A stretch of DNA of 64,000 bases, taken from the NCBI GenBank assembly GCA_902763535.1, contig CACWSG010000004.1, forward strand, positions 7,568 through 71,567, in the 5' to 3' direction. Shown one piece after another: positions 7,558-46,909 of the stretch. The DNA is from an uncultured Pseudomonadota bacterium. GTDB lineage: Bacteria; Pseudomonadota; Alphaproteobacteria; RF32; CAG-239. The notes under the pieces were generated by a model. The model was not told where the DNA came from. It ran no database searches and saw nothing but the letters and a program-made list of their open reading frames with translations. The position numbers and the translations under genes were made by a program. Each line of letters starts with the position of its first letter. Position 1 is the stretch's first letter.

Positions 7558-8697
7558 TTATTGTTTAGGGTGCAAATTTACAACGGCAATGTCAGCAGGA
7601 GCCAATAAACGCATATTCGGTCCTAAGGTTCCGGCGCCGCGTGAAACAAACAAATCAATATCGTTAACTTTGTATGTTCCGGCCAAATAATGATTAAGTT
7701 TTTGCACAAACCAGTGAACAGGGAAAAATTGACCGCCATGGGTGCGTCCCGACAACACAATATCAAACAACTCTTTAGATAAAGCATCTACAATTAAAGG
7801 TGAGTGGGATAACAAAACTCTGTAATTTTCTTTTTTTGATTTATAGATGGTGCGCCACAAATTTATTCTTTCGGCCATTGTAGAATAGTCAGGAATTCCG
7901 GCTATAAATATATTGGCAATTTTAATTGTCGCCCCGCCGTTAAACAAAAAGGTTATTCCTCTCTGCTCAAAAGCTTTTTTTGCATCATAAACATTATTAT
8001 AAAATTCATGATCTCCCATTATTGCATAAATGCCATAGGGAGCACTCAACTCGCGCAACTCATCTAACAAACCGTTTATCTTATTTATATTATCTCCGAT
8101 TGTGTCACCGGTAAGTACAATGGCGTCCGGAGATAAGGCGTTTACTTGATCAACAATGCTCTTAACTCTCTCTTTAGAAGTAGTTCTTGATATGTGTAAA
8201 TCACTTACTTGCACAATCTTTACATTGTTTTTTATCTTGTCACTGTAAAAATTTAATTCTTCTACATAAGGCAGTTTATTGGCTTGCCATGCAGCATAAA
8301 AACAAACTACAAAACTCAGGATAATTACCGCAAAATTGGTTTTATTTAATTTATCGCTGTTATTAGGATCCCATTCCCAAGAAGCTTTATCAAACAATTT
8401 TAAGAGTCTGAATAAAATAAACCAAAAAATATCGCGCAGCATCAAGCAAACAAACAAAATAAACACAAATGCCAGCATACAGTAAAAAATTTGATGCAGT
8501 GAAGTATATGTCATGTCGGTGACAAGATCATATTTCCCGACAAAATATAATATTGGAGCTCCAAACCAGCCAATTATAACCAACGCAATCACAGAATTTT
8601 TAATAATTGGGCTGAAATCACTATAACCAACCAAGTTTCTTATGGTTATTATAGAACAAGCAGCTGCTATTATAACAAAAGCCAATATTACAGACAT
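7558..8697 (-). CDS. Membrane-anchored metallophosphoesterase (YaeI/YkuE-like)
   Basis: N-terminal TM helices followed by calcineurin-like motifs VQVSDLHIS, LTGDTI, GDHEF, LLSHSP, GRTHGGQ. Confidence 0.75.
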   Translation of the reverse strand: MSVILAFVIIAAACSIITIRNLVGYSDFSPIIKNSVIALVIIGWFGAPILYFVGKYDLVTDMTYTSLHQIFYCMLAFVFILFVCLMLRDIFWFILFRLLKLFDKASWEWDPNNSDKLNKTNFAVIILSFVVCFYAAWQANKLPYVEELNFYSDKIKNNVKIVQVSDLHISRTTSKERVKSIVDQVNALSPDAIVLTGDTIGDNINKINGLLDELRELSAPYGIYAIMGDHEFYNNVYDAKKAFEQRGITFLFNGGATIKIANIFIAGIPDYSTMAERINLWRTIYKSKKENYRVLLSHSPLIVDALSKELFDIVLSGRTHGGQFFPVHWFVQKLNHYLAGTYKVNDIDLFVSRGAGTLGPNMRLLAPADIAVVNLHPKQ

Positions 8698-17234: not shown

Positions 17235-17897
17235 TTACAAGCCGCACAGTATTGCAACACCGCAAAGTATAATGGTCAATCCGGCCAACTCGTGCGTCCA
17301 GTTTTCCAATTTGTGCCAATGCAATTTTTGCAATCCCAGCAAGCCGATTGACACCATTGCCATCATCGCCGCAATTGTTGCAACCGAAAAAATAAAGGTT
17401 GAGCTGATGACGGCTTTGGTGCTCAAGACGCTTGCCGCGGTTAAAATCGGCAACAAAGCTTCACATGGGCCCAATACAAAAATAATAAAAATCACCCAGA
17501 CACTGATGTTTTTATCTTTGGGCAAATCATGGTGATGATGATTGTGCGGAGCGCGTAATTTGTGTTGCAACTTGTGTCGCAAGGCAAAAATTATATAAAC
17601 CACACCCAGTACAATCAAAGCCCAAGCCGCCACATCCGAGCGATGTTCTTCCAACCACGCAAACTGCTCTTGATTCAAAAAATGCGACAGATAGACAAAG
17701 CCCAAAGCAATCAACAAAGCACTGCCGATATGCCCGATACCGCATATAAAAGTCCACAGCAAAGTTTTTTTCAAACTGTAATTGCGAGCTTTGGCAATGG
17801 CGATAAACGGCAGATAGTGATCCGGTCCGGTAACTGTGTGAATGACGGCAGTCAAAAAAGCGGTCAACCACAATGAATAAATTGTAATATGTGTCAT
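17235..17897 (-). CDS. His-rich-loop membrane protein, probable Ni/Co transporter (NicO/RcnA-like)
   Basis: 6 TM helices, HTVTGPDH in TM1, GPCE in the second half, cytoplasmic loop APHNHHHHD. Sits at the end of the lar cluster. Confidence 0.5.
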   Translation of the reverse strand: MTHITIYSLWLTAFLTAVIHTVTGPDHYLPFIAIAKARNYSLKKTLLWTFICGIGHIGSALLIALGFVYLSHFLNQEQFAWLEEHRSDVAAWALIVLGVVYIIFALRHKLQHKLRAPHNHHHHDLPKDKNISVWVIFIIFVLGPCEALLPILTAASVLSTKAVISSTFIFSVATIAAMMAMVSIGLLGLQKLHWHKLENWTHELAGLTIILCGVAILCGL

Positions 17898-17917
17898 AAT
17901 CGTAAAAATAATTTAAG

Positions 17918-18748
17918 TTAAATTGTTCTTGTTTTTTTTAAGGTCTCATTCATGCTGCCGGTGCGATAACCTTTTAGGTCGAGAGTTGTATAAGCAAAAC
18001 CCATTTCGGTAAACTCATTATTGATTTTTTGGCGTACATTATCGACCATAATTTTAGCAAAGTCTTCCGGCAAAATTTCTATTCGAGCTAAATTGCCATG
18101 AATTCGCACCCTAAACTGTCTAAATCCCAAATTAAGCAAAAGCTGTTCAGCCTTATCAACCATCATCAGTTTTTCTTTGGTGATTGTTTCGCCATAAACA
18201 AAACGCGAGGCCAAACAGGCAAAAGATGGTTTATCCCAAGTCGGCAACCCCATTTCTTTTGAAATGTCGCGAATGTCTTGTTTGGAAAGATTACAATCCC
18301 GCAAAGGGCTTTTGATGTTTTGTTCACTCAATGCCTGCAATCCGGGACGATAATCTCCCATATCATCCAAATTGGAGCCTTCAACAATATGCTCAAATCC
18401 TTTATCCAAAGCAATTTTTTTGAGTTGCGTAAAAATAGCCGACTTGCAAAGATAACAACGATTAGCAGGATTTTTTACCACTGCATCATTATGCAGAATA
18501 TCTATCGGTACAATGATATGATTTATCTTTCGGTTGGCACAAAATTCTTTCGCTTCGTCCATTTCGCGCAGTGGGAAAAAATCTGATATTGCAGTCAAAA
18601 CCAGCAATTTATTGGAAGGCAAAACTTCTTTTGCTACCGCGACCAAAAAGGTTGAATCAACTCCGCCGGAGAAGGCTATTGCAACCGATTCCAAATTTTT
18701 AAGGTAGCACTTTAAATCCGCCAACTTTTGTTCTAAATCTTTATTCAT
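17918..18748 (-). CDS. larE: LarE, ATP-dependent sacrificial sulfur transferase (PP-loop)
   Basis: Likely start is MNKDLEQ at 18748, an 8-nt overlap with the larC stop. PP-loop SGGVDS. SFACLASRF contains the conserved Cys. Confidence 0.8.
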   Translation of the reverse strand: MNKDLEQKLADLKCYLKNLESVAIAFSGGVDSTFLVAVAKEVLPSNKLLVLTAISDFFPLREMDEAKEFCANRKINHIIVPIDILHNDAVVKNPANRCYLCKSAIFTQLKKIALDKGFEHIVEGSNLDDMGDYRPGLQALSEQNIKSPLRDCNLSKQDIRDISKEMGLPTWDKPSFACLASRFVYGETITKEKLMMVDKAEQLLLNLGFRQFRVRIHGNLARIEILPEDFAKIMVDNVRQKINNEFTEMGFAYTTLDLKGYRTGSMNETLKKTRTI

Positions 18749-20027
18749 AATACTCTTTGCTTTCAGCTTTTTGTTGCGCGGCGGTAAAAATTTCGTGAAA
18801 CGAAGCACCCGATTTCAGCGCCAATTCTTTAACACTTTCATATTCCGGCTGACAACGGATAATGTCTTTATAGGTGGAAATTTTGACCTTTACCTCGCCA
18901 TTTTGCAATTTTACTTTAACAATTTTACGCTCCATGCAAGAACGATCCACCATATATTTGCGCAAACCGATTGTCGATGTATGGCGAAAGACGGCATCTT
19001 CAACTTTTGCCAAAGCAGCGCCATTGGTAATTGCCCGCAACATATACGCCGGACGGCACTTTTTCATATAACAGGGCTCAAAATGCACATCAAAAGCACC
19101 GGCTGAAAAAATTTGTTCCATTGCAAAACCCAGTTCTTCAGGTGTTGAGTCGTCAATATTGCTTTCTACCACCCACATCTGGTCGTCATCCGAAACATCT
19201 TCAATCAGCATAATGCGCAAAAAATTAGCTTTGCCAAAGTCGCGTTTGCCTAATCCGATGCCTGATTTTAAGATTTTGTATTGTGCCGGCAATCTGTCAT
19301 GCGTTTTTATGGCTGCGGCAATAGCTATGCCGGTAGGGGTAACCATTTCTCCTTTTACGGCACTGGAGCGCAAAACAATACCTTCGGCTTGTGCAATATT
19401 AAACACGGCCGGAACCGGTACGGGAAGCTCACCATGCTGGCACATAATAGTGCCTTCACCCTCGGTCAAACCGCAGACAATGCAATTCTCTATTCTCAAA
19501 TCATCAATCAACACAGCTGCTGAAATAATATCGACTATTGAATCAATTGCGCCGACTTCGTGAAAATGCACTTCTTCTTTTTTCACTCCGTGAGCTTTGG
19601 CTTCGGCAACAGCCACGATGTCAAAAATTTTTTTAGCCAATGTTTTGGCTTTATCGCTCATATCAGCACTGTCAATAATAGCAATAACATCATTCAAGTG
19701 GCGATGCTGATGGTGATGGTGCTCATGTTCATGATGATGTTCATGTTCATGTTCATGTTCATGATCGTGATGATGGTGCTCATGTTCATGATGATGCTCA
19801 TGATAATGTTCTTCATGCGGTGCATCTTCATGATGGTGTACGGCAAAATCAAGTCCGGCAATGCTGTATGAATTTTTATGCTCAATGTGATAATGAAATT
19901 CATCGGAATTAAGACTGCGCAAAGCCTTTTCCATTTTTTCTTTTGCTGCTCCCATATTCAAAAGAGCGGCCACCGTCATATCGCCGGAAATTCCGCTTGC
20001 ACCTTCAATATAGAGATATTTAGTCAT
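18741..20027 (-). CDS. larC: LarC, nickel insertion (NPN cyclometallase), DUF111 family
   Basis: N-terminal GASGISGDM. Very long His/Glu tract (HHHEDAPHEEHYHEHHHEHEHHHHDHEHEHEHEHHHEHEHHHHQHRH). DUF111-type C-terminus. Confidence 0.85.
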   Translation of the reverse strand: MTKYLYIEGASGISGDMTVAALLNMGAAKEKMEKALRSLNSDEFHYHIEHKNSYSIAGLDFAVHHHEDAPHEEHYHEHHHEHEHHHHDHEHEHEHEHHHEHEHHHHQHRHLNDVIAIIDSADMSDKAKTLAKKIFDIVAVAEAKAHGVKKEEVHFHEVGAIDSIVDIISAAVLIDDLRIENCIVCGLTEGEGTIMCQHGELPVPVPAVFNIAQAEGIVLRSSAVKGEMVTPTGIAIAAAIKTHDRLPAQYKILKSGIGLGKRDFGKANFLRIMLIEDVSDDDQMWVVESNIDDSTPEELGFAMEQIFSAGAFDVHFEPCYMKKCRPAYMLRAITNGAALAKVEDAVFRHTSTIGLRKYMVDRSCMERKIVKVKLQNGEVKVKISTYKDIIRCQPEYESVKELALKSGASFHEIFTAAQQKAESKEYYE

Positions 20028-20700
20028 TATTTTTTCCTTTTAATTTGAGAATGCGAAACGCTTGCACCGCAGCCCCAAAACCATTGTCAATATTGACAAC
20101 CGATACCCCCTCAGCACAGGAATTTAACATTGCCAAAAGCGCAGACAGCCCGCCTAAAGAAGCACCATAGCCAACCGAAGTTGGTACGGCAATCACCGGC
20201 GAACTTACCAATCCTGCCACTACCGAGGCAAGCGCACCTTCCATGCCGGCAACCGCAATTATAACATCATTTTGGCGGATATCCTCGATTTTGCTCAACA
20301 AACGGTGCAGTCCGGCTATTCCGACATCATAATGGCGTGATACTTCGCTTCCGAAAAATTCCAAAGTTTTGGCAGCTTCTTCCGCCACCGGCAAATCAGC
20401 CGTTCCTGCACAGCAGACTGCGACTTTGCCGCCGACATTGGGTAAAGGCTCACCTAAAGTTAAAACTTTTGATGTTACATCATATTCAACAGCCAATCCG
20501 TTGGAGACCACAAAGTCAGCCTGTTCTTGGGAGCATCGCGTTCCCAAAACCGCACAATTTTTTTTCTGAAAAGTGCGCAAAATTTCTACTAACTGCTCCT
20601 TAGTTTTGCCGGCACAAAAAATTGTTTCCGGCAATCCGGTGCGCTCTTTTCTACTCAAATCGAGTTTGGCAAAACCTATGTCTGTATATGTATCGGCCAT
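20020..20700 (-). CDS. larB: LarB, NaAD carboxylase/hydrolase (PurE-like)
   Basis: AIR-carboxylase-like core VAVCCAGTADLPVAEEA ... AVAGMEGALASVVAGL ... PVIAVPTSVGYG. Start shares one base with the flavodoxin stop (TAATG). Confidence 0.85.
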   Translation of the reverse strand: MADTYTDIGFAKLDLSRKERTGLPETIFCAGKTKEQLVEILRTFQKKNCAVLGTRCSQEQADFVVSNGLAVEYDVTSKVLTLGEPLPNVGGKVAVCCAGTADLPVAEEAAKTLEFFGSEVSRHYDVGIAGLHRLLSKIEDIRQNDVIIAVAGMEGALASVVAGLVSSPVIAVPTSVGYGASLGGLSALLAMLNSCAEGVSVVNIDNGFGAAVQAFRILKLKGKNND

Positions 20701-21278
20701 TATTTTACATCAAATCCCAAACCTTTAAGCCAATCGGCAATTCCCATTGTGCGGTCGTTATAACCGACCCAAGGTGCATCGCTTACTTTGCAGCCTTTGC
20801 ATTGAGCAGTCAAATCGCTGACTGTATTTTGAACACCGCCGCCACCGTGAGTGATGAACGGAATAACAGTTTTACCGCTCAGGTCATAAGCTTGAAGAAA
20901 ACTGGACAATTGCGGAGTGATAGTGCTCCACCAATTGGGAGTACCGATAAATACTACATCATATTGCGCCAAATTCTCAAGTTTTGTTGTCAAGGCCGGA
21001 CGATAATTGTTGGTAATTTCTTCTTTGGCTTGTTGAACCATTTCATTATAATTTTCCGGATAAGTTCCCTCAGTTTTGATTTCAAACATATCGCCGCCGA
21101 TTTTGTCTTGAATGGCTTGAGCAACTTTTTTGGTATTGCCGCTGTACGAATAATAAACAATTAAGACTTTTCCCTCAGCGGATACTTTCTCGCTCGGGGT
21201 TTTTTGCGCCAAGGCTTTATATGTGCCAAACGATGCTGCCGCCATAATTAAAATTGCAATAATCAAATATTTATACAT
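20700..21278 (-). CDS. Flavodoxin-family protein with N-terminal signal peptide
   Basis: Signal MYKYLIIAILIMAAASFGTYKALA. Flavodoxin motifs VLIVYYSYSGNTKKVA, VFIGTPNWWSTI, PFITHGGGG. Confidence 0.75.
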   Translation of the reverse strand: MYKYLIIAILIMAAASFGTYKALAQKTPSEKVSAEGKVLIVYYSYSGNTKKVAQAIQDKIGGDMFEIKTEGTYPENYNEMVQQAKEEITNNYRPALTTKLENLAQYDVVFIGTPNWWSTITPQLSSFLQAYDLSGKTVIPFITHGGGGVQNTVSDLTAQCKGCKVSDAPWVGYNDRTMGIADWLKGLGFDVK

Positions 21279-21303
21279 ATCAATTCTCCTTAATGTTTAT
21301 CAA

Positions 21304-22542
21304 TTAAGCTTCAAAAACTTTTGCAACCTCTTTCATCCAGTCGCTGATTTTTATGTGTTGCGGACAATGTTTTTCACAAGCATGACAATGCAAGCAAGCT
21401 GATGATTTGGTTGAGTTTTTAATAAGGTTACTATAATAAACTTTTTGCACGGTAAAGGGCTTATCACTGCGTTCTTGTTTTTCGGCATTATAGAGGGCAA
21501 ACATCGCCGGAATATCAATCTTCATCGGGCAATATTCAACACAATAACGGCAAGCCGTACAAGGAATAGCAATTGCCGAATGCAGTTCTTTTACTGCATT
21601 TTCAACCACTTTGTATTCATCGCTGGTCAAAGGCTTAAAGTTTTGCATATAAGAGGTATTGTCCTCCAATTGTTCCATGGTGGTCATGCCGGATAGTACC
21701 ATCATCACTCCATCTAATGAGGCAGCATAACGAATTGCCCAAGAAGCCGGAGACATATCAGGTTCGGCATCCTTAAATACTTTTTCAACTGCCGGAGGAA
21801 CTTGGGCCAATGATCCGCCTTTAACCGGTTCCATGACCACAACCGGCAAATTGTATTTTTGCGCTATTTCATAGCACTTGCGCGATTGAATGGAGGTGTT
21901 GTCCCAATCAATATAGTTGATTTGCAACTGCACAAAATCAAGGTCAGGATTCTCTTTAATAACCTCTTCCAACAATTCAGGTGAATCATGGAATGAAAAT
22001 CCGATATTTTTAATCAAACCTTGCTTTTTCTTTTCTTTAATAAAGTTAAAGCTGTTGTGTTTGCGAATTTTATCAATTGTTCCGGCATTAACATTGTGAA
22101 TCATATAATAGTCAAAATATTTTAAACCGGTCTTTTCCAGTTGTTTATTGAAAACTTCTTCTTGTTCGGCTTCAGATTTTAAGTACCCTGCCGGCAGTTT
22201 GCTGGCTACGGTGAAACTATCGCGCGGGTGGCGTTCTACCACGGATTTACGAATAGCAACTTCACTTTCATAGCCCATATACATCCATGCTGTATCAAAA
22301 TAGGTGAAGCCGCGTTCCATAAATTTATCAACCATCTGATTGAGCAATTCATAATCAATTGAAGTCTGATCATCGGGATTTTTCAATGGTAAACGCATAA
22401 ATCCAAATCCCAATTTGTTCTTTGGATTCACAACAGCTTTTACCTTATCGGATACGGCAATTGTTTCACCGAATGTTAATTTGGGCAAAGCAGCACAGGC
22501 AAAAAAGGCTAAAGTACTCATTAAAAACTCGCGACGATTCAT
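21304..22542 (-). CDS. Aldo/keto reductase with C-terminal 2x[4Fe-4S] ferredoxin domain and twin-arginine signal
   Basis: MNRREFLMSTLAFFACAALP matches RRxFL plus an h-region. AKR TIM-barrel motifs (FDTAWMY, GFSFHD). CTACRYCVEYCP and CLHCHACEKHCP. Confidence 0.8.
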   Translation of the reverse strand: MNRREFLMSTLAFFACAALPKLTFGETIAVSDKVKAVVNPKNKLGFGFMRLPLKNPDDQTSIDYELLNQMVDKFMERGFTYFDTAWMYMGYESEVAIRKSVVERHPRDSFTVASKLPAGYLKSEAEQEEVFNKQLEKTGLKYFDYYMIHNVNAGTIDKIRKHNSFNFIKEKKKQGLIKNIGFSFHDSPELLEEVIKENPDLDFVQLQINYIDWDNTSIQSRKCYEIAQKYNLPVVVMEPVKGGSLAQVPPAVEKVFKDAEPDMSPASWAIRYAASLDGVMMVLSGMTTMEQLEDNTSYMQNFKPLTSDEYKVVENAVKELHSAIAIPCTACRYCVEYCPMKIDIPAMFALYNAEKQERSDKPFTVQKVYYSNLIKNSTKSSACLHCHACEKHCPQHIKISDWMKEVAKVFEA

Positions 22543-22577: not shown

Positions 22578-22608
22578 ATTGTAAAATTTAGAGCTTACTC
22601 TAAGTCAA
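22578..22608 (-). promoter_or_regulatory. MerR-type promoter/operator, site A (upstream of the AKR-lar operon)
   Basis: Minus strand: TTGACT-TAGAGTAAGCTCTAAATTT-TACAAT. The spacer is 19 nt and the dyad is TTAGAGT-AA-GCTCTAA (one arm mismatch). The -35 overlaps the tatC stop codon. Confidence 0.6.
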
Positions 22609-23321
22609 GATTTTTTTTGTTGTTTTTTTAATTTTCCAAAATACAGTCCTAATTCAAATAGAGCATAAGTCGGTAAAGTTAACATCAGTTGACTCACAAC
22701 ATCCGGAGGTGTCAAAACTCCCGCCAAAATCAGAATGCCCACAAAAACATAAGTTCTTTTGTTTTTAATCGCTTCATAAGCGACAATATCATTGGTAATC
22801 AGCGCATAGGTTATCAGCGGAAATTGAAAACATATCCCGAAAATCAGTGCCAGCCACAAAGCCAAACTTATCACATTCGATATTCCAAACACTGCCGTTA
22901 TATTGTCGGTAGCAAAACTAAGTCCGAATTTTATAATCATCGGCAAAATAAAAAACAGACAAAACATCACCCCGATTATAAACAATGTGCTGGAAATTAA
23001 AACAATTGACCGAATAAACCGACGCTCATTATCATATAATGCCGGCAAAACAAAATTCCAAATTTGTTTTGCAATATAAGGAAAGCAAACCAATATATCC
23101 AGCACTAAAGCTGTTTTAATTTGCAAAATAAAAACTTCCATCGGTGAAAAATAGTTCAGGCTGACACTTTGTCCGTCAATCATAACCTTAATCAGCCAAT
23201 TAATTACCTGTGGCGCAACAAAAAACAACGGCACAATGCCGATGGCCAAAGAAAGCAAACACTTTATCAGTGTTGAGCGCAATGCCTCCAAATGTGCTAT
23301 AAGACTTTTGTCTTCATCCAT
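22605..23321 (-). CDS. tatC: Twin-arginine translocase subunit TatC
   Basis: 238 aa, 6 TM, N-terminus LIAHLEALRSTLIK typical of TatC. Directly abuts the tatA stop. Confidence 0.85.
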   Translation of the reverse strand: MDEDKSLIAHLEALRSTLIKCLLSLAIGIVPLFFVAPQVINWLIKVMIDGQSVSLNYFSPMEVFILQIKTALVLDILVCFPYIAKQIWNFVLPALYDNERRFIRSIVLISSTLFIIGVMFCLFFILPMIIKFGLSFATDNITAVFGISNVISLALWLALIFGICFQFPLITYALITNDIVAYEAIKNKRTYVFVGILILAGVLTPPDVVSQLMLTLPTYALFELGLYFGKLKKQQKKS

Positions 23322-23528
23322 TTATTTTGACTTTTTTTCTTCTTCGTTTGCTGCTTCCTCAACGCTTTCTTTCAGCTCATTAACTTCGTTTTCAATAGCT
23401 GTCTTGGCTTTTTTGTATTCTGCTTGGGCTTTACCCAAAGCGCGGGCTAATTCAGGAATTTTCTTACCGCCGAACAGTACCAAGACTACGACTAAAATAA
23501 GAGCTATTTCGGTAACACCTAATGACAT
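23322..23528 (-). CDS. tatA: Twin-arginine translocase subunit TatA/E
   Basis: 68 aa. TM plus hinge [16 protein letters not shown], acidic C-terminal tail. Confidence 0.8.
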
Positions 23529-23540
23529 ATTTAATCTCCT

Positions 23541-24839
23541 TTACAAATTTCGATGTTGTTCCACCGGATAGATTGTGATGGCTTCAACCGGACAAGCACT
23601 GTGGCAAGCACCGCAACCGATACATTCTGAAGCATCAATAATCGGTTTTTCGCCTTCCTGTTTGGCTATAATACCTTTGGGACAAGTATGAACACACAAA
23701 CCGCATTCAATGCATTTTTCTTCATCAATCACAGCCATCGCGATTTGGGTATTCTGCTTTTGTTTCAGGCTTATATGCTCAATTGCACCGGAAGGACAAA
23801 CTCTTGCACATTTATTGCAATCATATTTACAGAAATTTTTGCCATAGTCAAGATGAACGACCGGATATTCGTTGTTGGCTTTTTTGATGATTTTCATCGG
23901 ACAGTTGTTTACGCACAAATTACAGTTTAAGCAGCGATTGGCAAAATCATGATAATTTTTGGCTCCGGCCGGAACAATGACTCTTTTAACTTTTTTCGCT
24001 ATATCCTGACTTATTTTAAGACCGGATTTATAAGCTCCTGCCAATGCTCCCAGAACCACAGCGCCAATTAACAGTTTTCGCCGCGTCGGGCTGAAATCCG
24101 GTTGGGGTTTGGGAGCGGCTTTTTGTCTGATAATATGACCTTTAGGGCAGGGAGCCAAGCAACGCAGACATTTCACACAGGTCTCATTATTGATGACTTG
24201 ATTTTGATAATCTATGCTGTTTGAAGGACATCCTCTTGCACACATTCCGCATTTGACGCAACCGGATTCGGCAAATTTTATTTTAAATAACGCAAAACGC
24301 GACAAAAAGCCTAAGATTGCGCCCACCGGACAGATGTTGGTGCAGAAAAAGCGCTTTTTTATAAATGTCAAAATTGCCAATAAAACAAAAAATGTTATCC
24401 CGTAAACCGCAAGAGAAGACAAATTGCCGCTGACGGAATAGGGATCAATATAGCGTATTATTACCGCACTTCCGCCCATCAACAAACCAAACGCAATTAC
24501 CGCAATCAGGTAATGAATAGCATAATGCTTCTGGTAAAAGTTACCTCTTTTCTTTTTCATGCGATGAAAAATCGGTTTATACAACCATAACAACAATTCC
24601 TGTAACAAACCTAAAGGACACAAGGTTGAACAATAAATTCGCCCGAATAATAATGTGATTAGTATTAAAAAAGTCAGTAATACCAAGGCGGTTATTGAGG
24701 GATATATAATGACTCTTTGCACAAGCGGGGCAACTTGCAAATCAAAAAAGGAAATCGGGTAGAAATACCCCAAAAATCCCAACAACATAAAAACACCAAA
24801 ACATATCGCAACTATTCTGCGCAGATAAAAATAAAGCAT
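23541..24839 (-). CDS. Membrane-bound polyferredoxin (NapH/MauN-like, multiple 4Fe-4S motifs)
   Basis: N-terminal TMs with GRIYCSTLCPLG. At least four CxxCxxCxxxCP motifs (CVKCGMCARGCP, CLNCNLCVNNCP, CIECGLCVHTCP, CIGCGACHSACP). Confidence 0.7.
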   Translation of the reverse strand: MLYFYLRRIVAICFGVFMLLGFLGYFYPISFFDLQVAPLVQRVIIYPSITALVLLTFLILITLLFGRIYCSTLCPLGLLQELLLWLYKPIFHRMKKKRGNFYQKHYAIHYLIAVIAFGLLMGGSAVIIRYIDPYSVSGNLSSLAVYGITFFVLLAILTFIKKRFFCTNICPVGAILGFLSRFALFKIKFAESGCVKCGMCARGCPSNSIDYQNQVINNETCVKCLRCLAPCPKGHIIRQKAAPKPQPDFSPTRRKLLIGAVVLGALAGAYKSGLKISQDIAKKVKRVIVPAGAKNYHDFANRCLNCNLCVNNCPMKIIKKANNEYPVVHLDYGKNFCKYDCNKCARVCPSGAIEHISLKQKQNTQIAMAVIDEEKCIECGLCVHTCPKGIIAKQEGEKPIIDASECIGCGACHSACPVEAITIYPVEQHRNL

Positions 24840-24869: not shown

Positions 24870-24900
24870 ACTATAAATTTTAGAGTTTACTCTAAGTCAA
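24870..24900 (-). promoter_or_regulatory. MerR-type promoter/operator, site B (upstream of polyferredoxin-tatA-tatC)
   Basis: Minus strand: TTGACT-TAGAGTAAACTCTAAAATT-TATAGT. 19-nt spacer, perfect dyad TTAGAGT-AA-ACTCTAA. Confidence 0.6.
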
Positions 24901-40119: not shown

Positions 40120-40215
40120 TTAAAAAAATTGTGGATTAAAGCTTGCTATTTTTGGGAAGATAATGTAGATTCCTGAGTGAATTTTGGGTATTAATTTTAA
40201 CAGTAAGGATATGAT

Positions 40216-40521
40216 ATGAGCACAATTACTCGTTCTGATGTTGTCGATGCGATATACAGTGAAATAGGTTTATCAAGAAAAGATTCCGGCGATATATTGG
40301 ATATGGTTATTGATGAAATTGTAAAAGAGTTGAGCTCAGGTAATGATGTTAAGTTATCAACTTTCGGTACTTTTTCGTTACATGATAAAAATGCTCGTAT
40401 TGGTCGCAATCCTAAAACCGGTGTTTCTGCGACAATTTCTCCTCGTCGGGTAATTTCTTTCAAAGCATCGCAGACATTGCGTAACCGCATAAATCGTCGC
40501 GGCAAGTATAAAGCAGCTTAA
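40216..40521 (+). CDS. ihfA: Integration host factor subunit alpha
   Basis: HU/IHF fold. GFGTF-like [22 protein letters not shown], 101 aa. Confidence 0.85.
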
Positions 40522-40522
40522 T

Positions 40523-40918
40523 ATGACAGTAAACAAAAGTAAATCTGCATTTCGCACCATTGCTGAACTGGCTGAAGAGCTGGGAGTTGCGACGCATGTT
40601 TTACGTTTTTGGGAAACCAAATTTGAACAAATCAAGCCGATGAAACGCGCCGGTGGACGCCGTTACTATCGTCCTGATGATGTCGAGCTTATCAAAGCTA
40701 TTAAGACTTATCTTTATGACAAAAGGTACACTATTGAGGGTGTGCAGAAGCTTTTTAAGGAAAAAGGCTTAAAAGCTATTTTGGGTGAAGAGATTCAAAA
40801 AGACTTTTTTGCGGAAGCCCCACAAGAAGTCGAATTAAACGAAAATTCCCGTGAGATATTGACACGCATTAAATCATCGCTTGAAGATATAAAAAGCAAA
40901 CTTTTGGAAGCTGTATAG
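40523..40918 (+). CDS. MerR-family transcriptional regulator (ihfA-linked type)
   Basis: [32 protein letters not shown]. Starts 1 nt after the ihfA stop, the conserved alphaproteobacterial arrangement. Confidence 0.8.
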
Positions 40919-41025
40919 TTTTTATTGCATAAAATTTATTTTGTATAACTGTTAGAAAGTGTTTGTATTAAAGCGCACTCTAACAGTTATTTTATATTTG
41001 CTTATAATATTAAGGAGTAATTATC

Positions 41026-42035
41026 ATGATGAGATTTTTGCTGACTTTGTTTTTAACCGTAATAATAGGGAAAAATGTAATGGCTGAAGATATACTAACC
41101 GCAAAAGAACAAGCTATCGCTTATGTGTCATCTTATGCAGCACGCGGCGATCAAATGGGCTTGAAAAAAGCAATTATACAAGGATTGGATAAAGGTGTTA
41201 CTATTAACGAACTTAAAGAAGTTTTGGTGCAGAGCTATGCCTATTGCGGTTTTCCGCGCAGTCTTAACGCATTGTCAACTTTGATGCAGACAGTGGAAGA
41301 ACGCGGCAATAAAGATGAAAAAGGTGCTGAGCCCGGTGCCAAACCGCAAGGAAGCAGCTTGGTATATGGCACGGAAAATCAGACCAAATTAACCGGAGCC
41401 GAGGTAAAAGGTAAACTGTTTGAATTTGCTCCGGCAATTGATGAATACTTAAAAGCCCACTTATTTGGTGATATTTTTGCTCGTGATAATTTGGATTGGA
41501 AAACTCGCGAACTGGCTACTATTGCTATGTTGGCTTCGCGTCAAGGAGTTGAAAGTCAATTGCAGGCGCACATAAATATCGGCAAACATAATGGGTTAAG
41601 TGATGAGCAAATCTCTGAAATCTTGAAAATTGCCTCTAAAACCGGAGCTGAGGCTGTGTTGTTTGGTTTTGGCGAAGAAAATACAGCTTATGCTCAATAT
41701 TTTATCGGTAAAAGCTATTTGCAGCCATTGACATCTGATGGAGTGGGAATGGCAAATGTCACATTTGAGCCCAAGTGCCGCAACAATTGGCATATTCATC
41801 ATAAAGGCGGTCAGATATTATTGGTTGTTGCCGGACAGGGATGGTATCAGGAATGGGGCAAACCGGCACAAAGCTTAAAGCCGGTGATGTAGTGAATATC
41901 CCTGCTGAGACAAAGCATTGGCACGGTGCCGCGGCTGATAGTTGGTTTACCCATATTGCAGTAGCCGTTCCGGCCGAAGGTGCAACAACCGAATGGCTGG
42001 AGCCGGTCAGCGATGAGGAATATAACAAATTGTAG
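41026..42035 (+). pseudogene. Exported carboxymuconolactone-decarboxylase (AhpD-like)/cupin fusion, interrupted by a 1-nt frameshift
   Basis: ORF 41026-41892 ends inside a cupin motif (HIHHKGGQILLVVAGQGWYQEWGKPAQSLK|PVM*). Frame +1 continues it (..LKAGDVVNIPAETKHWHGAA). The shift maps to ttaaag at 41875-41880, and one extra A would restore the frame. Signal peptide MMRFLLTLFLTVIIGKNVMA. Confidence 0.6.
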
Positions 42036-45181: not shown

Positions 45182-45310
45182 AGCAAAGTCCTTATTTTTA
45201 TTTGAATATGGGGCATCATAACATAAAAGATGTAAAAAACAATTAAGATAATTAAAAAAATTACTTGATTTTTGTAATTTATGCTGTATGTTTGGCACAT
45301 ATTCAATGCC

Positions 45311-45362
45311 GGGCTCTACGAAAAAAAGATTTTATTATTATGCCGCTATAGCTCAGTGGTAG
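45311..45362 (+). repeat. Duplicate of the tRNA-Thr leader plus tRNA positions 1-21 (pseudo-tRNA fragment)
   Basis: 52 nt match 45488-45539 with 1 mismatch. After gccgctatagctcagtggtag the copy diverges. Confidence 0.85.
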
Positions 45363-45518
45363 TGCTAAGTAAAATTGATACAGTGTATCAATTTTGTCTG
45401 CAAACTCTTTGGAACATCTTAGCGAGAGAGGGCAGCTTAATAGCAACCGAAGCGAGCTTAGATGCCAAAGGCACACCCTTTAAGGGTGGGCTCTACGAAA
45501 AGAAGATTTTATTATTAT

Positions 45519-45593
45519 GCCGCTATAGCTCAGTGGTAGAGCACACCCTTGGTAAGGGTGGGGTCGCAAGTCCGATTCTTGCTAGCGGCACCA
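45519..45593 (+). tRNA. tRNA-Thr (anticodon GGT)
   Basis: Hand-folded cloverleaf: acceptor GCCGCTA/TAGCGGC, D-arm GCTC-AGTGGTA-GAGC, anticodon arm CACCC-TTGGTAA-GGGTG, T-arm GCAAG-TCCGATT-CTTGC, encoded CCA. The T-loop reads TCC rather than the usual TTC. Confidence 0.8.
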
Positions 45594-45755
45594 TTAAAAA
45601 AGCCACCTTTATGGTGGTTTTTTTAATGGTAACATAAGCCAAGAACAGACTTGCGGGGGTAACGCAAAGTCCGAACCGATTTCGCCAAAGCGTGAAATGC
45701 TTTGGCGGCAGAGGACGACAGCGAGCAAATGAGGATTTGCGAGCTGTCATTCGCA

Positions 45756-45786
45756 GCTAGCGGCACCATTAAAAAAACCACCTTTA
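45756..45786 (+). repeat. Duplicate of the tRNA-Thr 3' end plus terminator start (att-like)
   Basis: gctagcggcaccattaaaaaaaccaccttta matches 45581-45611 with 1 mismatch. Confidence 0.85.
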
Positions 45787-45810: not shown

Positions 45811-46848
45811 TTACTTTAAATTTTCCTTGAAAAATTGTTCAATTTTATCAAACGGAATTTTGCTCATATTGTCATACAAATCAACATGGTTGGCATCGGG
45901 CACAATATACAATTCTTTGTTATCGCCTTTAAGTTTCTTAAAAGCATCTTCGCTGAAATAGCGGCTATGTGCTTTTTCGCCATGTACTACCAACACCGCA
46001 TTTTTAATAGTGTCGCTATATGCCAAAATCGGTTGAGTAATTAAAGACAATGCCGAAGTGGTATTCCAGTTGCCGTTCGAGTTAATTGAGCGGGGATGAA
46101 AACCGCGCGGTGTTTTATAATATTCAAAATATTCTTTGACAAACAACGGCTCTTCACCGGTCAATTTTTCCGGCAGCCCCGGAGCTTTGGCAAAAGTTCC
46201 TGCTTTATAATCTTTTGTGCGTTGGTTGTTTAGATCCTCACGCAATTTGTATAAATCCTCTTCGCTCATAACATCATTATAGCCTTTGGACGATACTCTG
46301 GTCATGTCATACATCGTTGAGGCTACGGTTGCTTTGATGCGGGTATCTTGTGCCGCGGCATTGAGCCCGAAACCGCCAAATCCGCAAATGCCGATAATAC
46401 CGATTTTGTTTTTATCAACTTGCGGCAAAGTCAGCAAATAATCTACCGCTGCACTAAAATCATCGGTATTGACATCAGGTGAAGCTACATTGCGCGCCTT
46501 ACCACCGGATTCACCGGTAAAAGACGGATCAAAAGCCAAAGTGATAAATCCGCGCTCAGCCAAGGTTTGGGCATATAATCCCGAGGCTTGTTCTTTAACT
46601 GCACCAAACGGACCTGATATGGCAATTGCCGAGCCGTTAATGGCATTTTTGTCTTTAGGCTCATACAAATCACCGGCTAAATCAATGCCAAAGCGATTGG
46701 TAAAACTAACCTTTTTTACTTCAACTTTGTCAGATTTTGCAAACACCTTATCCCAAGACTCGCCATCAGCCGCTATTGCCTTGCCGTTGGGAGCAAATGC
46801 CACACCCAAAGCGGCGATAGAACAAGCGCAAAGATTCTTCAAATTCAT
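45811..46848 (-). CDS. Secreted alpha/beta hydrolase (dienelactone-hydrolase-like, Cys nucleophile elbow)
   Basis: Signal peptide MNLKNLCACSIAALGVAFAPNGKAIA. Nucleophile elbow GICGFGG. C-terminal HVDLY His motif. Confidence 0.7.
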   Translation of the reverse strand: MNLKNLCACSIAALGVAFAPNGKAIAADGESWDKVFAKSDKVEVKKVSFTNRFGIDLAGDLYEPKDKNAINGSAIAISGPFGAVKEQASGLYAQTLAERGFITLAFDPSFTGESGGKARNVASPDVNTDDFSAAVDYLLTLPQVDKNKIGIIGICGFGGFGLNAAAQDTRIKATVASTMYDMTRVSSKGYNDVMSEEDLYKLREDLNNQRTKDYKAGTFAKAPGLPEKLTGEEPLFVKEYFEYYKTPRGFHPRSINSNGNWNTTSALSLITQPILAYSDTIKNAVLVVHGEKAHSRYFSEDAFKKLKGDNKELYIVPDANHVDLYDNMSKIPFDKIEQFFKENLK

Positions 46849-46878: not shown

Positions 46879-46909
46879 AATATAATTATTAGAGTAAACT
46901 CTAAGTCAA
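46879..46909 (-). promoter_or_regulatory. MerR-type promoter/operator, site C (upstream of the alpha/beta hydrolase)
   Basis: Minus strand: TTGACT-TAGAGTTTACTCTAATAAT-TATATT. 19-nt spacer, perfect dyad TTAGAGT-TT-ACTCTAA. Confidence 0.6.

Follow-up and report, generated by a model that had tools for sequence, protein, structure and literature searches.

A recurrent, probably MerR-type promoter of the NmlR/AdhR-like branch at operons for putatively exported redox and detoxification enzymes in an uncultured alphaproteobacterium

We find support for the presence of a repeated MerR-type promoter at operons predicted to encode exported detoxification and redox enzymes in a stretch of 64,000 nucleotides (hereafter "the window") from an uncultured gut or rumen alphaproteobacterium of the GTDB lineage RF32, CAG-239 (assembly GCA_902763535.1, contig CACWSG010000004.1, positions 7,568 to 71,567). 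The copy on which we focus, site C, lies on the minus strand at 46879-46909, ahead of a gene for a signal-peptide alpha/beta hydrolase, and is very probably a MerR-type sigma-70 promoter that depends on an activator and belongs to the NmlR/AdhR-like branch, whose short MerR proteins carry no ligand-binding domain. Judging from the genes that follow its sites, the regulon is probably a response to carbonyls or electrophiles. The sequences show how the site is built, that it recurs and is conserved, that it is linked in other genomes to one regulator subfamily, and what kinds of gene it precedes; that a regulator binds it here, in which direction and on what signal it acts, and that the products are exported, we infer. 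The promoter type itself is known, and site C would be an ordinary instance of it; what is unusual is a target set dominated by putatively exported redox enzymes. The novelty would lie in the breadth of the operator class, and in an apparently exported set of targets that includes Tat machinery and Lar cofactor genes in gut alphaproteobacteria.

Site C has the sequence TTGACTTAGAGTTTACTCTAATAATTATATT (31 bases; minus strand of 46879-46909), which resolves into TTGACT-TAGAGTTTACTCTAATAAT-TATATT, the -35 element occupying 46904-46909, the 19-nt spacer 46885-46903 and the -10 element 46879-46884, an exact match of which none is expected by chance. The dyad TAGAGT/ACTCTA is without mismatch and can be lengthened to arms of 7 bp (TTAGAGT-TT-ACTCTAA, 46889-46904), and the centre of TTAGAGT-NN-ACTCTAA falls 7.5 bp past TTGACT, in keeping with the 7-8 bp or so that characterise MerR-type operators. 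A 20-bp operator footprint, ACTTAGAGT-TT-ACTCTAATA (46887-46906), overlaps the -35 element in part, as the 9-bp half-site ACTTAGAGT takes in the last 3 nt of TTGACT; a half-site overlapping the -35 is a mark of NmlR and AdhR promoters. Between the -10 element and the hydrolase ATG (46848) lie 30 nt that include a GAGG ribosome-binding site, and a search of the window against Rfam returned a tRNA-Thr only, with no riboswitch or other RNA element in the hydrolase leader. A preliminary description of this DNA had given the sequence, strand, 19-nt spacer and perfect dyad of site C, and had placed it about 30 nt ahead of a signal-peptide hydrolase with a GICGFGG elbow; all of this is confirmed, the signal-like N-terminus having been read by eye.

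Two further perfect copies of the motif occur in the window. Searching for the dyad and then for the 21-position consensus TTGACTTAGAGTNNNCTCTAANNNNTANNNT, we obtain three matches without mismatch, namely site A (TTGACTTAGAGTAAGCTCTAAATTTTACAAT, 22578-22608, minus strand), site B (TTGACTTAGAGTAAACTCTAAAATTTATAGT, 24870-24900, minus strand) and site C, which are alike at all 21 consensus positions and completely different in their flanks. A possible degenerate fourth copy, site D (TTGTATTAAAGCGCACTCTAACAGTTATTTT, 40963-40993, plus strand), has 4 mismatches and keeps both the 19-nt spacing and the TAnnnT of the -10 element. All four sites share the 19-nt spacer, within the 19-20 bp of MerR-type promoters as against the usual 17 bp, and each ends 30-35 nt ahead of a start codon; in site A the -35 element overlaps the stop codon of tatC. 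Twenty mononucleotide shuffles yielded 0 consensus matches when as many as 3 mismatches were allowed and 0.1 when as many as 4 were, and dinucleotide-preserving shuffles yielded 0. With three perfect copies against none in shuffled sequence, the earlier claim that recurrence at three promoters is unlikely to be due to chance is borne out.

The motif is by no means restricted to this genome. An exact scan of 185,579 GTDB species genomes for TTGACTTAGAGTNNNCTCTAA (18 specified bases) returned at least 119 loci, and the counts of motifs, regulators and target genes given below refer to these listed loci, with an 8-kb locus searched in each case for a regulator. The matches listed come from Bacillota, Cyanobacteria, Actinomycetota, Chloroflexota, Fusobacteriota, Elusimicrobiota, Gastranaerophilales and alpha-, beta- and gamma-proteobacteria. 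TAnnnT follows at exactly 19 nt in 109 of 119 sites, with 0-5 sites at each of the other spacings, and conserved flanking positions extend the motif to a 9-2-9 palindrome, ACTTAGAGT-NN-ACTCTAAGT, preceded by C and an A-tract. Moreover, one subfamily of MerR proteins is encoded at 80/119 loci, scoring 120-190 bits against a hidden Markov model (HMM) built from its members. Of the 82 open reading frames of this subfamily, 29 are found directly downstream of the site, 24 are divergent from it and 23 are in other arrangements, many of these last ending at the -35 element. The constancy of spacing and the linkage to MerR genes support the previous proposal of a MerR-type promoter standing at several operons. 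A literature search with the exact dyad sequence gave no relevant match.

The genes that follow the motif elsewhere are consistent with a role in redox metabolism or detoxification. The first non-MerR gene (n=106 loci) encodes most often an aldo-keto reductase (AKR; 26), a short-chain dehydrogenase (SDR; 17), a carboxymuconolactone decarboxylase/AhpD-like (CMD) protein (17) or a protein with an Fe-S domain (9), followed by DXP-synthase-like proteins (6), flavodoxin_4, FMN_red and DUF362 proteins (5 each), Fe-ADH (4) and cupins (3); zinc alcohol dehydrogenases are not among the 25 commonest families behind the motif.

The regulators linked to the motif in other genomes are related to NmlR. For four representatives the best NCBIfam match is NmlR (NF041849), at 75-99 bits, and the best matches in the PDB are Haemophilus influenzae NmlR (HiNmlR; 5D8C/5D90/5E01, E 2e-31) and 3GPV; they align end to end with HiNmlR and possess no sensor domain. 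The 75 motif-linked regulators all share Arg20, have Lys or Arg at position 24 (75/75), and carry an aromatic residue at position 21. An equivalent of Cys54 ("IECLKETGM" in the alignment) is present in 27 of the 75, including all 5 from metagenome-assembled genomes (MAGs) of gut alphaproteobacteria (L033, L059, L091, L114 and L116), and the position is occupied by Arg, Lys or His in the 48 others, which belong to other phyla. Cys54 is needed for the response of HiNmlR to formaldehyde, as its counterpart is for the activation of AdhR (PMC5001606, PMC4776306).

Comparison with related genomes provides evidence that the operator is maintained. Site A forms an invariant island in the promoters of orthologous genes for AKR-FeS proteins (an AKR with a C-terminal Fe-S domain) in five related MAGs (L108, L039, L043, L103 and L106), where the A-tract, the -35 element, the dyad and TA.A.T of the -10 element are kept, the flanks have diverged and the proteins are 70-89% identical. 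Among the matches listed, the GTDB locus closest to the window is that of L108, a MAG from roe-deer omasum; it has a counterpart of site B with 3 mismatches, and L055 has none. Contigs identical to the window exist in several ENA metagenome assemblies, and the same-strain copies (L200-L203) are identical and thus uninformative on conservation. Among metagenomic loci we found no syntenic orthologue of the window around the hydrolase. The preliminary description had proposed conservation of the dyad in orthologous promoters as a test, and the outcome is divided: the dyad is kept at AKR-FeS promoters, but is lacking at most orthologues of the hydrolase.

The motif is nevertheless found with the hydrolase family in several other places. 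Among the 80 closest metagenomic homologues it stands directly upstream of the hydrolase gene in L196, and a 2-mismatch copy heads the operon in L127. Among the alphaproteobacterial orthologues, which were retrieved by protein identity, those of L208/L209 (80% identity) are the third gene under a perfect site, after FMN_red and Flavin_Reduct, those of L204-L206 (81% identity) have an ordinary promoter with a 17-nt spacer, and L207 has none. Motif loci with a hydrolase homologue are also seen in a MAG of the Bacilli (L017: regulator, flavodoxin, hydrolase) and one of the Streptococcaceae (L047). Furthermore, the neighbours of the hydrolase in other genomes (DXPS-like, FMN_red, rubredoxin fusions, flavodoxin) are of kinds that typically stand under the motif. 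In the closest full-length orthologues, L122 and L123, the sequence TTGCGT/TTGCAT-19-TATATA/TATATC occurs about 70 nt upstream of the hydrolase start; these promoters have a 19-nt spacer and a homologous 5' untranslated region, but their dyad is different and off-centre, and we rejected them as conserved sites. The inverted repeat in L122 (TAATGC-N8-GCATTA) may be the site of another regulator or a chance occurrence.

Several observations weigh against our interpretation, or restrict it. The regulators of related genomes fall below the equivalog cut-off of NF041849 (99 vs 175 bits), and the hallmark targets of NmlR, adhC and estD, are absent behind sites A-D as judged by Pfam; because neither the equivalog threshold is reached nor these hallmark genes are present, the system falls outside the NmlR regulon as strictly defined and is NmlR-like only. 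No NmlR-like gene was detected in the 64 kb of the window by pattern and HMM searches in six frames, and the 10 kb beyond each of its ends (covered by the identical contigs L210 and L213) hold neither such a gene nor a further site, so that the presence of the regulator in the genome is assumed. The motif is absent at 78/80 of the closest metagenomic hydrolase homologues and present in only one of three orthologue contexts in alphaproteobacterial MAGs, and, since 78 of 80 homologues and two of three contexts are without it, membership of the hydrolase in the regulon appears to be lineage-specific and evolutionarily labile, but recurrent. Finally, site C is overlapped by a weak candidate promoter with a 17-nt spacer (TTTACT-17-TATAGT); a scan for consensus promoters gave 4 matches vs 3.4 expected, no more than in shuffled sequence, and is uninformative.

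A potential mechanism can be outlined by analogy with HiNmlR and AdhR. A dimer of the regulator, encoded elsewhere in the genome, would bind the 9-2-9 pseudo-palindrome ACTTAGAGT-NN-ACTCTAAnn, centred 7.5 bp past the -35 element, and with the regulator at rest the 19-nt gap between the -35 and -10 elements would make the promoter a poor one for RNA polymerase. Modification of a conserved thiol (the equivalent of HiNmlR Cys54 and AdhR Cys52) by a carbonyl or another thiol-reactive electrophile would then lead the dimer to untwist the spacer and switch the promoter on. The same switch would govern at least three transcription units of the window, namely the Cys-elbow hydrolase, the operon for a polyferredoxin, TatA and TatC, and the operon for AKR-FeS, flavodoxin and LarBCE, with the CMD gene as a possible fourth.

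Several alternative explanations for the repeated sites deserve consideration. The window contains a single MerR-family gene (Pfam MerR_1), encoding 131 aa at 40523-40918 on the plus strand directly after ihfA (the pair spanning 40200-40918), and this protein, rather than an NmlR-like one from elsewhere, might recognise the sites. It is encoded 45 nt upstream of site D and in the same orientation, an arrangement that mimics the order regulator, site, CMD of Vibrio and Shewanella loci, and its recognition helix shares H17, R20 and an aromatic residue at position 21 with the subfamily. However, it scores 45 bits on the HMM of motif-linked regulators vs 120-190 for members, on which ground we rejected it as the cognate regulator; its best NCBIfam match is CarH-like and not NmlR, and it has Thr at the DNA-contacting position 24, which is Lys or Arg in all 75 regulators. 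Moreover, none of the 80 listed motif-linked regulators is of its type, one related protein (in L003) lying >220 nt from its site, and ihfA-merR is a conserved housekeeping gene pair, which we count against a specific role in this regulon. We therefore consider recognition of the sites by this protein very unlikely.

The apparent distance from a cognate regulator is also what would be expected if the sites were relics, that is, weak constitutive promoters with a poor 19-nt spacer whose regulator has been lost or was never present, and which share their motif through common descent or acquisition rather than current co-regulation. No cognate regulator is encoded within about 84 kb, the hydrolase cassette sits beside duplicated fragments of a tRNA-Thr gene, which is compatible with acquisition, and site D appears to have decayed. 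Yet the three other copies are perfect at 21 positions with wholly different flanks, site A is invariant over five species in which the neighbouring intergenic sequence has diverged, and the regulator is encoded in five related MAGs of gut alphaproteobacteria. Perfect copies and an invariant site A indicate that selection still acts on them, for which it would be difficult to account if no protein bound them, and we regard it as very unlikely that the sites are relics. A further suggestion treats the 31-mer as one copy of a short mobile or repetitive element, or as a match due to chance, in either case devoid of promoter function. It might draw on the AT-rich intergenic position of the 31-mer and on the weak 15-nt inverted repeats that flank the hydrolase cassette, yet it is contradicted by several findings: shuffled sequences give 0 matches, similarity ends at the edges of the motif, the copies share their orientation and all lie 30-35 nt ahead of a start codon, the motif is linked to MerR genes across phyla with an exact spacing of 19 nt to the -10 element, and no Rfam family matches the site. 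It is thus extremely unlikely, and can be regarded as effectively refuted already. An activator-dependent promoter served by an NmlR-like protein is the reading that we prefer.

The operon behind site A (17235..22542, minus strand; junctions tight or overlapping) begins with an AKR that bears a C-terminal 4Fe-4S dicluster domain and, by eye, a twin-arginine leader, MNRREFL (21304-22542), and continues with a flavodoxin_4 protein that has a signal peptide, again by eye (20700-21278), LarB (20020-20700), LarC (18741-20027), LarE (17918-18808, start uncertain) and a membrane protein of 220 aa (17235-17897), the domain assignments being those of Pfam. We take such AKR-FeS fusions to be of the COG1453 type. 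The gene order of this operon is repeated in L108 and L039. Linkage of LarBCE to a Tat-signal AKR-FeS protein and a flavodoxin is likewise observed in those two and in a Bacillota MAG (L078), and no LarA-type user enzyme was seen in operons combining LarBCE with AKR-FeS. Site B precedes a second minus-strand operon (22605..24839), which consists of a gene for a polytopic membrane polyferredoxin with two CxxxCP motifs (Fer4_5, NapH-like; 23541-24839), an open reading frame for a TatA of 68 aa (23322-23528) and tatC (22605-23321), the first and last being assigned by Pfam. The synteny of polyferredoxin, TatA and TatC is shared with L108, L039, L055 and L103, and in the Gastranaerophilales loci L104 and L090 a single operon behind the motif encodes the AKR-FeS protein, the polyferredoxin and TatC. 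Genes of the Tat translocase are thus placed at site B under a predicted stress promoter. The preliminary description had assigned an exported AKR and an exported flavodoxin to the two sister sites; the AKR does stand behind site A, but the flavodoxin has no site of its own, being the second gene behind site A, and since both genes share that site the assignment of one gene to each was wrong in detail.

Site D is preceded at 45 nt by the ihfA-linked MerR gene and followed after 32 nt by a plus-strand gene (41026..41892). The latter, its candidate target, encodes a CMD protein (Pfam CMD) of 288 aa with a signal peptide and a cupin-like C-terminus, homologues of which occur in four loci with a perfect motif (L111, L085, L038 and L013), in L111 as the first gene after it.

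The signal sequences of the Sec and Tat types on these products were judged by eye. The N-termini of the flavodoxin, the hydrolase and the CMD protein show the succession of n, h and c regions with an AxA-like site, and the twin-arginine leader of the AKR-FeS protein (MNRREFL...) is conserved in 7 orthologues. Leaders of the Tat or Sec type recur on orthologous targets (AKR-FeS, flavodoxin_4 and CMD) in related gut alphaproteobacterial MAGs, and other twin-arginine-like leaders are found on FMN_red in L040 (MNRRRFI) and on DUF362 in L119 (MKRRDF). As far as a reading by eye allows, the leaders on orthologous targets support the idea of an extracytoplasmic response. Membrane-anchored metallophosphoesterases are targets of the motif in the related MAGs L033, L057 and L114 (6516-7664); the window encodes a metallophosphoesterase of the same Pfam family and membrane-anchored type at 7558-8697 (minus strand), with no site upstream.

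A more far-reaching possibility, which we advance tentatively and from gene content, is that a thiol switch of the NmlR-like kind governs, in alphaproteobacteria of gut and rumen and independently in Gastranaerophilales, not a set of cytoplasmic detoxification enzymes but an entire reductase system outside the cytoplasm. In such a system the NapH-like membrane polyferredoxin would feed electrons outward, and the 4Fe-4S dicluster carried by the Tat-exported AKR itself would replace NAD(P)H, which is absent from the periplasm. The other parts would be the exported flavodoxin, a dedicated TatA and TatC, and the co-transcribed nickel-pincer genes LarBCE, with the exported Cys-hydrolase and the CMD protein as satellites. 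If true, this would amount to a defence located in the periplasm and energised by the membrane, directed at carbonyls and xenobiotics from diet or host, and to a new context for AKR and Lar chemistry. Apart from this possibility, the promoter sites themselves predict that in gut and rumen alphaproteobacteria, a poorly understood group, exported redox enzymes and a Tat translocase of the cell's own are induced at the same time.

The hydrolase behind site C (45811..46848, minus strand, 345 aa) has by eye a Sec-type signal peptide, its signal-like N-terminal sequence being MNLKNLCACSIAALGVAFAPNGKAIA|AD, and belongs to the PA2218/YcjY family. It matches Peptidase_S9, DLH and Abhydrolase_1 in Pfam, with the DLH match covering the elbow, and its best matches in the PDB are 2HDW (PA2218, E 2.6e-117) and 5XB6 (YcjY, E 6e-50). 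The elbow reads GICGFGG, in agreement with the G-x-Cys-x-G form of dienelactone-hydrolase-like alpha/beta hydrolases with a Cys nucleophile. The pattern GICG[FW]GG is present in 79/81 homologues, with GICAGAG in YcjY; a Cys at this nucleophile position thus characterises the family, and is presumably catalytic. PA2218 of P. aeruginosa aligns with residues 30-344 of the window hydrolase and shares the G-I-C-G-x-G-G elbow, whereas E. coli YcjY starts at the position of its residue 46, so that, unlike the window protein, YcjY is without a signal peptide. Since both structures are deposited as uncharacterised or hypothetical proteins, no function was transferred from them. The regulatory context itself may offer a functional hypothesis for PA2218/YcjY hydrolases, as it may for AKR-FeS fusions and for LarBCE clusters without LarA in the operon.

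The surroundings of the hydrolase gene provide some further observations. The 5' part of a tRNA-Thr gene (45519-45593) is duplicated, with its upstream region, 177 nt upstream at 91% identity, and its 3' end and terminator are duplicated at 97% identity directly at the hydrolase stop codon; the segments concerned are 45302-45365, 45479-45542, 45581-45611 and 45756-45786. These duplications may be an integration scar, and they suggest acquisition of the hydrolase gene, along with its promoter, in the form of a cassette. Thiamine-diphosphate proteins of the DXP-synthase-like kind (581-645 aa) recur as the first gene behind the motif (L037, L098, L114 and L077), and are also found in hydrolase operons without it (L123, 7838-9775; L204, 6472-8232). 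Beyond the start of the window, positions 1-7700 of L210 encode a cupin, an Rrf2 regulator, a CsoR/RcnR-like repressor, a cation-efflux protein, ankyrin-repeat proteins and a phage-integrase fragment, a stretch that looks island-like and unrelated to the promoter finding.

With reference to systems already described, the closest counterpart of the sites is the PadhC-estD operator of HiNmlR and of Neisseria NmlR. The likeness extends to a MerR-type promoter with an elongated spacer, a half-site overlapping the -35 element, and G and C at dyad positions 5' and 5 (in the 16-bp numbering of our motif), the very positions whose mutation lowers HiNmlR binding approximately 10-fold (PMC5001606). It also extends to the regulators adjacent to the motif in related genomes, which are without a sensor domain and carry Cys54 (27/75), Arg20 and Lys/Arg24. 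However, Cys71 and Cys95 of HiNmlR are not conserved in these regulators, the HiNmlR operator includes the whole of the -35 element within its inverted repeat (PMC5001606), the targets in the window are AKR-FeS, flavodoxin, polyferredoxin-Tat, the Cys-elbow hydrolase and CMD instead of adhC-estD, and the regulator gene is not adjacent in the window. Furthermore, the literature gives only Neisseria and Pasteurellaceae as Gram-negative hosts of NmlR (PMC4776306), whereas the motif and its regulator are found here in alpha-, beta- and gamma-proteobacteria, in cyanobacteria and in other phyla. The operator ACTTAGAGT-NN-ACTCTAAGT with its 19-nt spacing may link a large and mostly uncharacterised NmlR/AdhR-like group to its targets in at least 7 phyla, well past the few Neisseria, Pasteurellaceae and Gram-positive cases in the literature.

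PMC4776306, citing Huyen/Nguyen et al. 2009, describes B. subtilis AdhR (YraB) as a thiol-based MerR activator that answers formaldehyde and methylglyoxal through Cys52, with a regulon composed of adhA-yraA and of yraC, a CMD-family gene. The last of these is the main point of likeness, as a CMD gene comes first behind the motif at 17/106 listed loci and also stands behind site D. The AdhR targets differ in being cytoplasmic, and no gene for a class III alcohol dehydrogenase or a DJ-1/PfpI protein lies behind the window sites. It should be noted that the likeness of our sites to the HiNmlR operator is one of geometry and dyad positions, and that to the AdhR system one of regulator type and target genes. 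With the classical regulators MerR, CueR, ZntR and SoxR the sites share a spacer of 19-20 bp and a dyad centred 7-8 bp past the -35 element, the position reported for classical MerR-family sites (PMC5045206), and these proteins act by repression in the bound state and activation through untwisting of the DNA (PMC5001606, PMC5045206, PMC9909328). The motif-linked regulators, in contrast, have neither a C-terminal metal-binding loop nor a 2Fe-2S motif, the sequence of the dyad is another one, and reductases and a hydrolase take the place of efflux pumps or soxS among the targets.

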